A stretch of DNA of 64,000 bases from Alphaproteobacteria bacterium. Its GTDB lineage: Bacteria > Pseudomonadota > Alphaproteobacteria > RF32 > CAG-239. A model generated the notes under the pieces. The model saw only the letters and a list, made by a program, of their open reading frames with translations. It ran no database searches and had not been told where the DNA came from. Below are positions 8,183-10,626 of the stretch, piece by piece (the first letter of the stretch is position 1; every line of letters starts with the position of its first letter). The stretch lies in assembly GCA_045593845.1 (NCBI GenBank), contig JAZNXK010000004.1, positions 4,436-68,435 of the forward strand, read 5' to 3'. The translations under genes and the position numbers were made by a program.

Positions 8183-8211
8183 TTGACAGAAATAATAAAA
8201 ACAAATAGTAT
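8183..8211 (+). promoter_or_regulatory. Sigma-70-type promoter of microprotein cassette A (TTGACA-N17-TAGTAT)
   Basis: -35 TTGACA at 8183-8188, a 17-nt spacer, -10 TAGTAT at 8206-8211. It begins 5 nt after the alaS stop. The same module recurs at 9946 and 10294. Confidence 0.6.
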
Positions 8212-8256
8212 TAACGAAAATTAGCACTATTTTTTTTATTATTAAAATTTAATATC

Positions 8257-8478
8257 ATGTTTGGTTTTATTTTTCTTTTATTAGCAGTAGTAGTGCTGCT
8301 TGTTATTTGCTTTGGGATCTGGGGCCTTTTGGTAAAACCCTCCGACACAGCAGCCAAAGTCGCAGTCATCATCTTGAGTATTCTTGCTCTGATTGTTGTG
8401 TTGATAATTGCGCAAACCGTTTATTGTCTTTTCTTTTCTCAAGGAATGAGCTGTCTCATTCCTTTTTTTGTTTTCTAA
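8257..8478 (+). CDS. 2-TM hydrophobic microprotein, cassette A (73 aa), C-terminus FFSQGMSCLIPFF
   Basis: Two hydrophobic helices separated by KPSDTAAK. It is a paralog of 10021..10290 and 10369..10626 with the same architecture. No Shine-Dalgarno. The coding status rests on the conserved 2-TM layout despite divergent sequence. Confidence 0.5.
   Translation: MFGFIFLLLAVVVLLVICFGIWGLLVKPSDTAAKVAVIILSILALIVVLIIAQTVYCLFFSQGMSCLIPFFVF
8441..8469 (+). terminator. Rho-independent terminator lying inside the 3' end of cassette A ORF
   Basis: Stem AAGGAATGAG (8441-8450) / CTCATTCCTT (8455-8464), loop CTGT, T7 run 8463-8469. The stop codon comes only at 8476-8478. Confidence 0.7.
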
Positions 8479-8530
8479 TATCTCATCTTTCGCAAAAAAA
8501 CGATCGACACTTTGGAGAGTGTCGATCGCT
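8463..8530. repeat. Left arm of the imperfect inverted repeat bracketing the tandem-repeat protein gene
   Basis: 8463-8493 TTTTTTTGTTTTCTAATATCTCATCTTTCGC matches the reverse complement of 9893-9923 at 26 of 31 positions, with the first 17 identical. The match continues through the A-run and hairpin module (8494-8530 vs 9850-9892). Confidence 0.65.
8494..8528 (-). terminator. Rho-independent terminator of the tandem-repeat protein gene
   Basis: Perfect 10-bp stem CGATCGACAC (8501-8510) / GTGTCGATCG (8519-8528). The A7 run at 8494-8500 is a T-run on the minus strand. It lies 9 nt downstream of the minus-strand stop at 8537. Confidence 0.75.
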
Positions 8531-8536
8531 GAAAAT

Positions 8537-9760
8537 TTACGAAATATAGCCAAGTTCTTGGGCTTTCCTTCTAGCCTTGCGACAAAGACAGTTGTCTTTG
8601 AGATATTCAGGAAGAATTTCTTTGACAATATCCGCAGGCAAATCCAATAATTTGAGCTCTACCTCTTCACAAAGGACATTGTGTTTATAACATTCAGGAA
8701 GAACTTCTTTTACGATTTGAGGAGGAAGGTCAAAAATTTTAACTTCTGCCTCTTTGCAAAGGACGTTGTCTTTATAATATTCAATCAGAACTTCTTTCAC
8801 GATTTGAGGAGGAAGGTCAAAGATTTTAATTTCTGCCTCATCGCAAAATGCACTTATCTTGATGTACTCAAGGGCAACTTCTTTTGCTACCTCCGGCGGA
8901 AGGCTAAAAATTTTGACTTGCGCTTCATTATACAAATCATCATCTTTGATATACTCAAGTACAACTTCTTTTGCAACTTCAGGCGGAAGACTAAAAATTT
9001 TAACTTGCATATCTTCAGACAAAGCATAATGGTGGATATATTCAAGCAAAATCTCTTTAGCAATATCCACAGGCAAATCAAAAATTTTGAATTCTGCTTT
9101 ATCGCAGAGAGCGTAGCTATCTCGAGTATATTTAAGCACAATCTCTTTTACAGTTTCTGCAGATAAATCAAAAATTTTGACTTGTGCACTAACAGACAAC
9201 CGTTCATCAGCATATTCAAGCAAAATCTCTTTGGCTATTTCCTCTGGAAGATCAAAAATTTTCATTTCAGCCGCCTCGCAGAAAGAGCATTCTTTGACAT
9301 ATTTCCGCAGAACTTCTCTTGCAACCTCAAGAGGAAGGTCAAAGATTTTTACTTGCCCTTCGACATCGAGAGCATAACTACCGATGTACTCTAGCAAAAA
9401 TTCTTTTGCCACATCAATCGGCAGATCAAAAATTTTGAGCTCCGCCTCACAACAAAGATAGTTCTTCTTAAGATATTCAAGCAAAATCTCCCTCGCTAGA
9501 TTAACCGGAAGATCAAAAATTTTGCCCTGTGCAACGCTACACATTCCATACTTTTTGACATATTCAATCAGAATTTCTTTTGCATCTTGCGGAGGAAGAT
9601 CAAAGATTTTAATTTCCGCCACATCAGAAAGGTGATGATTTTGGATATACATAAACAGCATATCCTTCATTTCTTGCGGAGAAAAATTGAAAATCTCCAC
9701 ATCATTATCCCTAATGTCATAGCCATTTTGGATAAGTCTTAATAATTCTTCTTTGTCCAT
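8537..9760 (-). CDS. Tandem-repeat (solenoid-like) protein: 13 x 29-aa repeats, consensus KIFDLPxxxAKEILLEYxKxxxxCxxAEx
   Basis: 407-aa uninterrupted ORF. Repeats cover residues 22-396 (nt 8573-9697). Repeat positions 1-6 and 10-17 are conserved, and positions 7-9 and 18-26 are variable. It has its own terminator (8494-8528). The opposite-strand frames are broken. Confidence 0.75.
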   Translation of the reverse strand: MDKEELLRLIQNGYDIRDNDVEIFNFSPQEMKDMLFMYIQNHHLSDVAEIKIFDLPPQDAKEILIEYVKKYGMCSVAQGKIFDLPVNLAREILLEYLKKNYLCCEAELKIFDLPIDVAKEFLLEYIGSYALDVEGQVKIFDLPLEVAREVLRKYVKECSFCEAAEMKIFDLPEEIAKEILLEYADERLSVSAQVKIFDLSAETVKEIVLKYTRDSYALCDKAEFKIFDLPVDIAKEILLEYIHHYALSEDMQVKIFSLPPEVAKEVVLEYIKDDDLYNEAQVKIFSLPPEVAKEVALEYIKISAFCDEAEIKIFDLPPQIVKEVLIEYYKDNVLCKEAEVKIFDLPPQIVKEVLPECYKHNVLCEEVELKLLDLPADIVKEILPEYLKDNCLCRKARRKAQELGYIS

Positions 9761-9799
9761 ATAATGATATTTTAATGAATAATAAGTGTTTGTGTTCTC

Positions 9800-9827
9800 C
9801 GTATATCAGATTTTTGAACAAAAGCAA
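9800..9827 (-). promoter_or_regulatory. Candidate promoter of the tandem-repeat gene (TTGCTT-N16-TATACG with TG extended -10)
   Basis: The minus strand reads AACTCTTGCTTttgttcaaaaatcTGaTATACG. The AACTCTTG prefix is shared with the cassette promoters. Confidence 0.3.
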
Positions 9828-9849
9828 GAGTTTTTTAGCAGAGACACTA

Positions 9850-9923
9850 AAAAACCAACCATCACTTTAGAGAGTATCGGTCGCTTTTTTTTAAGAAATA
9901 TGAGTGATTAGAAAACAAAAAAA
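9850..9923. repeat. Right arm of the imperfect inverted repeat bracketing the tandem-repeat protein gene
   Basis: It contains a degenerate copy of the 8494-8530 hairpin module (9850-9886), a T8 run, and an inverted copy of 8463-8493 (9893-9923). Confidence 0.65.
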
Positions 9924-9945
9924 TATAGATATTTTTTACTAACTC

Positions 9946-9974
9946 TTGACAGAAATAATTAAAACAATTAGAGT
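9946..9974 (+). promoter_or_regulatory. Sigma-70-type promoter of microprotein cassette B (TTGACA-N17-TAGAGT)
   Basis: -35 at 9946-9951 and -10 at 9969-9974. It is preceded by the conserved spacer AAAAAAATATAGATATTTTTTACTAACTC. Confidence 0.55.
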
Positions 9975-10020
9975 TAGCAACAATTAGCACTATTCTTTTT
10001 ATTATTAAAAAACAAATATT

Positions 10021-10290
10021 ATGGAAAAATTTTTATTTATCTTAAAAGTAATTTTTATCATAGCTGAATTTGGGTTCTTGACCTTTCTGGTTATGATAGT
10101 ATGGTTTCCGCTACAAGAATTTTCGACCTACAGCAAAAAAGAACAATTTGAAATTTTAGCAATCTGCATCCTTGCTTTTGTGATATTATTAGCCATAGGC
10201 ATAACGATTTACGAATTTTTCTTTTCTCAAGGAATGAGTTGTCTCATTCCTTTTTTTTATCCCCAAAAAAATATAGATATATTTTACTAA
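10021..10290 (+). CDS. 2-TM hydrophobic microprotein, cassette B (89 aa)
   Basis: Same architecture and the same FFSQGMSCLIPFF motif. The ORF reads through its terminator and the inter-cassette spacer to TAA 10288-10290. Confidence 0.5.
   Translation: MEKFLFILKVIFIIAEFGFLTFLVMIVWFPLQEFSTYSKKEQFEILAICILAFVILLAIGITIYEFFFSQGMSCLIPFFYPQKNIDIFY
10229..10258 (+). terminator. Rho-independent terminator inside the 3' end of cassette B ORF
   Basis: Stem AAGGAATGAG (10229-10238) / CTCATTCCTT (10243-10252), loop TTGT, T8 run to 10258. Confidence 0.7.
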
Positions 10291-10293
10291 CTC

Positions 10294-10322
10294 TTGACAG
10301 AAATAGCTGAAATAAATAGTAT
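10294..10322 (+). promoter_or_regulatory. Sigma-70-type promoter of microprotein cassette C (TTGACA-N17-TAGTAT)
   Basis: -35 at 10294-10299 and -10 at 10317-10322. Confidence 0.6.
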
Positions 10323-10368
10323 TAATACCAGTTAACACTATTTTATTTATTATTAAATCCCCAATATT

Positions 10369-10626
10369 ATGGAAATAGTTTTATTTTTACTAAAACTACT
10401 GGTTGTCCTGGTAGAATTAGGCGTTATTGCCTTTTTGGTTATGCTGCTGTGGCATCCGCTAAAGTGGTCATCACTGAAAAAACTGTCCTCCTACAGCCCA
10501 AACGAACGAGCAATGCTTGTTCTTGTTGCTGTCCTTGTTGTGGTAATTACATTTGTCACAATCACAACTGTTGATTATTTTTTCTTTTCCCAAGGAATGA
10601 GCTGCCTCATTCCTTTTTTTTTGTAA
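10369..10626 (+). CDS. 2-TM hydrophobic microprotein, cassette C (85 aa)
   Basis: Same architecture, ending FFFSQGMSCLIPFFL. The stop TAA 10624-10626 follows directly after the terminator T-run. Confidence 0.5.
   Translation: MEIVLFLLKLLVVLVELGVIAFLVMLLWHPLKWSSLKKLSSYSPNERAMLVLVAVLVVVITFVTITTVDYFFFSQGMSCLIPFFL
10592..10622 (+). terminator. Rho-independent terminator inside the 3' end of cassette C ORF
   Basis: Stem AAGGAATGAG (10592-10601) / CTCATTCCTT (10606-10615), loop CTGC, T9 run to 10622. Confidence 0.7.

Follow-up and report, generated by a model that had tools for sequence, protein, structure and literature searches.

Three paralogous cassettes downstream of alaS

The stretch analysed here, called the window below, comprises 64,000 nucleotides (nt) of contig JAZNXK010000004.1 from a rumen alphaproteobacterium. 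Downstream of alaS, the gene encoding alanyl-tRNA synthetase, it carries three paralogous units, and both reading of the sequence from 7600 to 11400 and alignment of the units confirmed the limits given to them in an initial annotation (8183-8478, 9946-10290 and 10294-10626). The evidence reported in the following sections supports the view that these units are autonomous cassettes, in each of which a promoter and leader precede a microprotein gene, whose product has two transmembrane (TM) helices, and a terminator. The three open reading frames (ORFs) also have the lengths previously assigned to them, that is 73, 89 and 85 residues. The genes and spacers are the following (the groups A, B and C are defined in the next section):

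5554-8178, plus strand: alaS (alanyl-tRNA synthetase), an ORF whose L001 and L025 orthologues match Pfam tRNA-synt_2c, tRNA_SAD and DHHA1
8257-8478, plus strand: cassette 1 ORF, 73 codons, group A; the core ends in ...YCLFFSQG and the last 13 codons are terminator and trailing sequence
10021-10290, plus strand: cassette 2 ORF, 89 codons, group B; stop 38 nt past the terminator stem
10369-10626, plus strand: cassette 3 ORF, 85 codons, group C, protein P0001; stop starting 11 nt past the last G-C pair of the terminator stem
9917-9945, plus strand: spacer AAAAAAATATAGATATTTTTTACTAACTC, duplicated at 10265-10293
10265-10293, plus strand: second copy of the spacer, identified by sequence reading and unit alignment

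The TAA stop of alaS is 4 nt ahead of the -35 hexamer of cassette 1. A cassette is found directly 3' of alaS in 9/9 related loci and, reading the junctions directly, the distance between the alaS stop and the cassette -35 is 4-5 nt in all of them, while the number of copies per strain varies from one to three. The spacer AAAAAAATATAGATAT(A)TTTTACTAACTC, described earlier as a link between cassettes, occurs at both positions listed above. Around the cassettes lie alaS, folD and the genes for a repeat protein and a TerB-domain protein; the setting is a chromosomal housekeeping one, without phage genes.

Distribution and coding capacity of the family

Homologs of the cassette proteins were searched for in very large sequence collections. 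A word-indexed search of 5.8 billion proteins, using one sequence and a profile, returned seven clusters; one more (P0008) came from an exhaustive HMMER run over 1.84 billion representatives, which otherwise recovered only the family itself. The family comprises about nine clusters in these 5.8 billion proteins. The family is encoded on contigs L001, L002 and L025-L029, and cassettes are also present in two GTDB metagenome-assembled genomes (L003 and L009, both named 'Alphaproteobacteria bacterium', from yak rumen and omasum). When GTDB genomes were scanned with the promoter-leader pattern, 2 of the 8 matches were true relatives; in JGI metagenomes all of the matches to this pattern (14/14) were attributed to chance and discarded. 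All contigs with cassettes belong to relatives of the window organism, L025 being a near-identical strain. Judging from these sequences, the family is tiny, lineage-restricted and anchored 3' of alaS in uncultured rumen or gut Alphaproteobacteria.

Our comparison set consists of 15 cassettes from 9 loci, which fall into three paralogue groups, A, B and C, corresponding to cassettes 1, 2 and 3 of the window. Within groups, orthologues show ratios of non-synonymous to synonymous substitution rates (dN/dS) of 0.07-0.53, and in six of the seven pairs synonymous changes are in significant excess (p between 1e-6 and 2e-3). Insertions and deletions within groups are all multiples of three, internal stops are absent (0/15 cassettes) and purifying selection extends along the entire two-TM protein. 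On the basis of these substitution patterns the cassette ORFs are real protein-coding genes.

These data bear on the possibility, already raised in the initial annotation, that the cassettes form a family of small non-coding RNAs (sRNAs) with conserved 5' and 3' ends and fortuitous ORFs, in which case homologs could carry frameshifts or stops in the middle region. It is true that the ends are much more conserved than the middle, that the start codons lack a Shine-Dalgarno sequence and that the terminator stands ahead of the stop codon. However, since dN/dS is low, indels are in phase and internal stops do not occur, homologs keep the frame and the picture expected of an sRNA family is not observed; moreover, the hydrophobic two-helix pattern is retained at 28% identity between groups, no conserved RNA structure was detected outside the terminator and Rfam gave no match. 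The sRNA reading is therefore disfavoured already, and we consider it hardly credible, while the protein reading of the initial annotation holds.

The coding regions are strongly diverged, with a protein identity between groups of about 28-50%, and the membrane architecture that had been proposed for all three products was found again in spite of these diverged middles. Each protein has two hydrophobic segments of about 30 residues or more (mean hydropathy of at least 1.6 in a 19-residue window), separated by a short and mostly basic loop, which is net-basic in groups B and C. The grand average of hydropathy (GRAVY) is 1.2-2.2 across the cassette proteins, which measure 65-89 residues with a core of about 62-75. 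The AlphaFold2 model consists of a helix at residues 2-34, a loop and a second helix at 44-74, and its predicted local distance difference test (pLDDT) score is low in the tail. This tail, encoded by the terminator hairpin described below, has no charged residues in the proteins of cassettes 1 and 3, and the C-terminal part is hydrophobic (FFSQGMSCLIPFF). According to hydropathy and the structural model, the cassette products are thus two-TM membrane microproteins.

No known family had been recognised for these proteins, and nothing in Pfam, NCBIfam, PHROGs, PADLOC or Rfam changes this: Pfam and NCBIfam contain no family matching the cassette proteins at E<0.01, and in Rfam nothing relevant appeared either at the gathering threshold or at E-values up to 5. 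Weak matches to SLATT and holin families (E 0.02-0.97 in Pfam, NCBIfam, PHROGs and PADLOC) were rejected as hydrophobic bias. A Foldseek comparison of the AlphaFold2 model with the PDB reached an E-value of 5.6 at best, a figure without meaning for a helical hairpin.

Concerning holins, a likeness had been pointed out in the initial annotation, and cassette proteins do resemble class II holins, which have two TM domains and 65-95 residues. However, the C-terminus of class II holins is charged and hydrophilic, while that of the cassette proteins is hydrophobic; the best holin match in PHROGs (E-value 0.34) is not significant, and neither phage genes nor lysis genes accompany the cassettes in their housekeeping context. 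Searches with tblastn gave no match in 50,697 phage records and none in plasmid records. The holin suggestion is therefore not supported.

We also considered an alternative genetic code, which was rejected, the long ORFs of the window being intact under table 11. One public protein of the family, P0002 (L002, 154-558), is annotated with 134 residues by reading TGA as sense, while its table 11 ORF has 86; this call is a gene-caller artefact on a short AT-rich contig and does not speak for recoding in the lineage.

An intrinsic terminator inside the reading frame

The three units had been described as sharing a conserved 3' end of about 45 nt. This conserved end is present in all three, as a block CAAGGAATGAG-N4-CTCATTCCTTTTTT which matches three times in the window against 0.00 expected, but its nature had been missed, since it corresponds to an intrinsic terminator inside the ORF:

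8441-8469, plus strand: intrinsic terminator of cassette 1, AAGGAATGAG-CTGT-CTCATTCCTT, then T7 in total, inside the ORF
10229-10258, plus strand: intrinsic terminator of cassette 2, 10-bp stem, loop TTGT, T8, inside the ORF
10592-10622, plus strand: intrinsic terminator of cassette 3, 10-bp stem, loop CTGC, T9, inside the ORF

Each element is a stable stem-loop containing G and C with a U-tract directly after it, as in canonical intrinsic terminators. The hairpins have a 10-bp stem and a 4-nt loop, with folding energies of -12.3 to -13.4 kcal/mol (z about -4.3), and none of 200 shuffled sequences folds as well. The T-run is 7-9 nt long in the window and 6-9 nt over all cassettes. Pairing is kept in 97% of cells of the alignment versus 42-65% for slid registers, and between hairpin types A and B two pairs are changed on both sides, these compensatory changes being effectively one evolutionary event. 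The terminator of cassette 1 probably ends alaS read-through transcripts as well.

As a consequence of this position, the conserved C-terminal peptide QGMSCLIPFF is simply the translation of the hairpin and the U-tract. In none of the three window copies is the hairpin preceded or interrupted by a stop codon; this is so for 10 of the 15 cassettes in all, which represent all three groups, and the stop-less state is found in at least 7/9 loci. In the window, stops start 14, 38 and 11 nt past the last G-C pair of the stem for cassettes 1, 2 and 3 respectively, in each case beyond the T-run. Counting from the same pair, the first in-frame stop of the stop-less cassettes is found 11-170 nt downstream, with a median of 36.5, and the median for the other two frames is 58. 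No constraint on the frame past the terminator is apparent from these sequences. In L025, the T-run of cassette 2 has 7 nt versus 8 in the window, so that the frame is shifted and the tail differs (84 residues), and the T-run of cassette 3 has 7 nt versus 9, which lengthens the ORF to 107 codons. One copy of L001 (L001b) stays open for a further 170 nt, into the convergent gene. Because the stop lies at variable distances past the terminator, the C-termini proposed by gene callers are arbitrary, ranging over 84-138 residues for one protein.

Some relatives have ordinary stops. In L029 the hairpin is unchanged and a TGA directly adjoins its 5' side, and the group A copies of L001, L002 and L009 possess a variant hairpin (AGGGATAA/TTATCCCT, type B) with a TAA in its 5' arm. 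Since in these four cassettes (L029, L001a, L002b and L009a) the stop comes before or in the hairpin, the tail encoded by it must be dispensable for the protein; the compensatory pair changes, for their part, mean that selection acts on the RNA stem. These relatives are exactly like ordinary compact genes in which a terminator overlaps the stop, while the three window copies differ from such genes in having no stop at all before the terminator. We compared this arrangement with the other terminators of the window: among 14 strict ones, only the three of the cassettes are crossed by a genuine ORF, and nine terminators of other genes begin 4-22 nt past the stop codon.

Without a stop codon ahead of the terminator, transcripts ending in the U-tract should be non-stop mRNAs. 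The main rival to a reading based on such mRNAs is that the cassettes are ordinary small membrane-protein genes in which stop loss was neutral, translation proceeding to a chance stop by transcriptional read-through or because a lead ribosome suppresses the hairpin, with no designed role for rescue. Those members whose stop is a normal one, at the hairpin or inside it (L029 and type B), agree with this possibility, as do the short distances, of only 11-14 nt past the stem, to the stops of cassettes 1 and 3 and the low structural confidence predicted for the tail. On the other hand, the stop-less form persists in all three groups and in at least 7/9 loci at dS values of 0.5-1.2, stops are as far as 38-170 nt away and the L001b frame enters a convergent gene; in addition, hairpin and U-tract form a strong canonical terminator and no other gene of the window tolerates such a layout. 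Neutral stop loss seems to us an unlikely explanation, yet one to be taken seriously.

The position of the terminator, wholly within the translated frame, could also suggest a translation-sensing attenuator: a coupled ribosome, which must unwind the hairpin, would block it and allow transcription into the next cassette or the orphan genes downstream, while an untranslated message would be terminated. Co-oriented genes are indeed located downstream of the cassettes (10720-14743). However, each cassette and downstream gene has its own promoter-like element, and the sequence past the cassette 3 terminator (GTAACA.AATTGCAACTTTAC...) is also found past the L003 cassette. A convergent folD lies opposite the last cassette of L001 and L009, leaving nothing to be regulated there, and purifying selection on the whole two-TM protein goes beyond what mere translation of a leader would require. 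We therefore consider attenuation very improbable.

Two recoding signals were examined and rejected. A programmed frameshift at U_UUU_UUC of cassette 3, followed after 7 nt by a hairpin, is not plausible because cassettes 1 and 2 lack the heptamer and no stop is close by in the -1 frame; a +1 frameshift leading to the TGA inside GGAATGAG (+1 frame) has no recognisable shift site. No tRNA-like or tmRNA-like element was found in the cassettes.

Concerning terminators elsewhere in the window, perfect palindromic hairpins with T-runs on both strands, apparently bidirectional terminators, lie between genes at 29710-29734, 45630-45657 and 59303-59328, and different scans picked up one more hairpin, at 34782-34811, on each of the two strands. 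Palindromic intergenic hairpins of this kind, always preceded by a stop codon, represent the normal baseline of termination in this genome.

Promoters and the conserved leader

A promoter scan confirmed the nearly identical -35/-10 module attributed to the three units, and the associated leader elements are listed with it:

8183-8211, plus strand: cassette 1 sigma-70-type promoter, TTGACA-17-TAGTAT
9946-9974, plus strand: cassette 2 promoter, TTGACA-17-TAGAGT
10294-10322, plus strand: cassette 3 promoter, TTGACA-17-TAGTAT
8206-8243, plus strand: cassette 1 palindrome TAGTATTAAC-GAAA-ATTAGCACTA with T-run and ATTATT; leader motif at 8221-8244
9984-10007, plus strand: leader motif of cassette 2, TTAGCACTATTCTTTTTATTATTA; here the palindrome has a decayed 5' arm
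10317-10355, plus strand: cassette 3 palindrome TAGTATTAAT-ACCA-GTTAACACTA with leader motif

The -35 block, C[A/T]CTTGACAGAAATA, matches three times in the window, where 0.13 matches are expected, and TTGACA is unchanged across 12 aligned cassettes and in every pair compared. The lack of a Shine-Dalgarno sequence, also reported previously, was verified, since GGAG, AGGA and GAGG are absent from the 20 nt before all three ATGs; most other genes of the window possess one (for instance GGAGGAG before the ATG at 10720). The leader is about 38 nt long and A/U-rich.

A conserved leader of about 40 nt had been pointed out in the initial annotation. The conserved motif itself is there, as TTA(G/A)CACTATT-N6-ATTATT at 8221-8243, 9984-10006 and 10332-10354, but about half of the leader turned out to be the 3' arm of a palindrome plus a T-run. 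Over all cassettes the leader block measures 24 nt (TTAnCAyTATT-N6-ATTATT). It is 80-100% identical even across paralogue groups in different genomes, for which coding sequences are only 57-67% identical, promoter spacers 50-82% and post-terminator DNA 44-56%. The first half of the block is the 3' arm of the palindrome, and the -10 hexamer is located inside the 5' arm. In L029, L002 and L025 the plus strand folds at this place, after alaS, into a stem of 13 bp closed by a 4-nt loop, with U8 behind it (-14 to -16 kcal/mol, z -4 to -6); in the case of L029, folding of the minus strand is far weaker because two of the pairs are G-U wobbles. No other terminator was found for alaS. The palindrome is therefore probably the alaS terminator with the cassette promoter embedded in it, and the locus would then show a compact arrangement in which a promoter is contained within the terminator of the preceding gene. 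Since the -10 element lies inside the 5' arm, cassette transcripts would start in the loop or 3' arm of the hairpin and thus escape it.

It should be noted, however, that the motif is intact although the hairpin is weak in cassette 1 (-4.2 kcal/mol) and lost in cassette 2, and must therefore have a further role at the 5' end of the mRNA. RNAalifold found no conserved pairs in the leader and start region. Within the window the palindrome is confined to the cassettes and a DNA operator common to other genes was for this reason rejected. We also discarded a HrcA/CIRCE element: TTAGCACTA is similar to the CIRCE half-site TTAGCACTC, but it has no N9 partner and no canonical CIRCE exists in the window.

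The leader is also the point where a type I toxin-antitoxin array, proposed in the initial annotation by analogy with ldr, ibs and zor, can be evaluated. According to this proposal the cassettes would encode membrane toxins whose leader is targeted by, or encoded opposite to, an antisense RNA antitoxin blocking translation. There are likenesses to type I loci (ldr/rdl, ibs/sib, zor/orz, hok/sok, tisB/istR): ORFs are small and very hydrophobic, tandem arrays vary in copy number between strains, promoter and terminator belong to each unit, and the 5' untranslated region is conserved, here with an invariant 24-nt block and no Shine-Dalgarno. Furthermore, the start codon of cassette 2, and that of four relatives, is overlapped by an antisense promoter-like sequence, TTAAGA-16-CATAAT. 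However, this site is weak (9/12) and not conserved, being present in 5/13 cassettes and absent from 8/13, including cassettes 1 and 3. Unlike in type I loci, no conserved antisense or divergent sRNA gene was found, the window contains no second, complementary copy of the leader motif, and no conserved leader structure sequesters the start codon. No toxin family of Rfam or Pfam matches. Known type I toxins mostly have fewer than 60 residues and one helix, while cassette proteins have 65-89 and two, and to our knowledge a stop-less terminator layout is not a feature of type I toxin loci. A type I system is in our opinion distinctly improbable and, like the attenuator and sRNA readings, has less support than neutral stop loss.

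Predicted non-stop mRNAs and possible ribosome rescue

The reading towards which we lean, if only slightly, is that the cassettes are stop-less genes for two-TM microproteins, whose terminated, non-stop mRNAs would need ribosome rescue, so that the product level would be tied inversely to the capacity for trans-translation. It is established that transfer-messenger RNA (tmRNA), together with SmpB, tags the products of non-stop mRNAs for proteolysis. Transcription of each cassette would begin at the promoter belonging to it and end in the U-tract, giving a stop-less mRNA of about 250-295 nt. Translation would start without a Shine-Dalgarno sequence on the A/U-rich leader and pass through the melted hairpin to the mRNA's 3' end, where the ribosome would need rescue. 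If rescued by tmRNA-SmpB, the product would be tagged for proteolysis, while an ArfB-type factor would release it untagged. Dependence on rescue would keep the hydrophobic product low, at a level inverse to the trans-translation capacity.

A terminator ahead of the stop codon in natural genes is described, in the literature that we searched, only for ArfA, found in Escherichia coli and other Proteobacteria, and for BrfA of Bacillus subtilis. The brfA gene has a Rho-independent terminator ahead of its stop codon, is translated from a non-stop mRNA, with repression by trans-translation (PMC6881298), and arfA behaves in the same way (PMC8012679). In both, the ORF is small (about 72 codons) and has, upstream of the stop, an internal hairpin or Rho-independent terminator, the natural mRNA has no stop, the product is subject to tmRNA tagging (PMC6881298, PMC8012679) and the codons past the terminator are not part of the physiological product. 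The cassettes share the layout, each having hairpin and T-run within the ORF and upstream of the stop.

The proteins are very different. ArfA and BrfA bind the ribosome; they are soluble and basic, and their basic C-terminal segment fills the vacant mRNA channel and recruits release factor RF2. Cassette proteins, in contrast, are hydrophobic two-helix membrane proteins with a hydrophobic C-terminus, and no sequence relationship was found in Pfam, NCBIfam or by HMMER, as reported above. For these reasons the cassettes are not members of the ArfA or BrfA families. Unlike these factors, they occur as one to three tandem paralogues fixed beside alaS and some relatives have ordinary stops; regulation by trans-translation, experimentally shown for ArfA and BrfA, is predicted for the cassettes. 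As far as the ORF and terminator layout indicates, the cassettes are non-stop-encoded small proteins, here of a membrane class.

Several observations weigh against the non-stop reading. A ribosome coupled to RNA polymerase would melt the hairpin, allowing read-through to the stop, which in cassettes 1 and 3 is only 11-14 nt further on. The ordinary stops of L029 and type B imply that stop-lessness is not obligatory and could be a tolerated, near-neutral state. The distances to in-frame stops (n=10) are, if anything, a little smaller than those to stops in the other frames. The genes for tmRNA, SmpB and ArfB are not in the 64-kb window. Finally, the leader motif does not vary even in cassettes 1 and 2, whose upstream hairpin arm has decayed, and the alaS-terminator reading does not fully explain it.

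A stronger form of the hypothesis would make the product a rescue-gated membrane effector: tmRNA tagging would normally destroy it, and its accumulation in the membrane when trans-translation is saturated or fails would cause growth arrest, toxicity or a stress response. The regulatory device of ArfA and BrfA would then serve a wholly different type of protein. As a variant, ArfB-type release would be the normal termination route, as for the stop-less messages of mitochondria. Alanyl-tRNA synthetase charges tmRNA with alanine (PMC3985003), and because of this the position of the cassettes after alaS may be functional. This linkage is suggestive, but it may only reflect common ancestry and the joint terminator-promoter element, and we judge the effector hypothesis improbable.

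A stop-less, terminator-in-frame design in a conserved family of membrane microproteins is unusual. The layout of ArfA and BrfA makes their expression report the tmRNA capacity of the cell, and the cassettes represent a membrane-protein family with such a layout. If their transcripts truly end in the U-tract, being 'non-stop by design' would be a more general mode of gene regulation, and there would be a simple signature to search for further cases, namely an ORF that remains open across a strong intrinsic terminator and whose frame further downstream is unconstrained.

The variable region between alaS and folD

Orphan genes (10720-14743) make up a variable island in the interval that separates alaS from the convergent folD (14731-15594). 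It encodes a 232-residue protein, a TerB-domain protein, a 117-residue protein and an 816-residue protein with a HEGAH zinc-protease-like motif. Comparing L001, L003, L009 and L025, we found that subsets of these genes differ among relatives and that in L001 and L009 the cassettes stand alone; the cassettes are thus the constant part of the island.

The repeat protein next to cassette 1 (8537-9760, minus strand) has 407 residues, with about 12 tandem repeats of 29 residues (87 nt; KIFDLPxxxAKExLLEY...). Pfam gives scattered repeat-driven matches, none of which passes alone, so that it has no convincing family. Both cassette 1 and this gene are missing from the near-identical strain L025, pointing to an insertion/deletion polymorphism, and in L029 a homologous 3' end of the gene is found after the cassette. 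On visual inspection, the hairpin that terminates the repeat-protein gene, GATCGACACTTTGGAGAGTGTCGATC (8499-8530), has a degenerate look-alike, CATCACTTTAGAGAGTATCGGTCGC with T8 (about 9858-9893), on the other side of the gene, and the inserted segment may therefore have related hairpins as flanks.

Two separate TerB-domain proteins of 142 residues are encoded in the window, at 11428-11856 (plus strand) and 17524-17952 (minus strand), the second adjoining an unrelated orphan of 407 residues at 16294-17517. An ankyrin-repeat protein (4898-5353, minus strand) lies beside housekeeping genes (map, radC and an ABC transporter). Ankyrin, repeat and orphan proteins together hint at a eukaryote-associated lifestyle of this rumen alphaproteobacterium.

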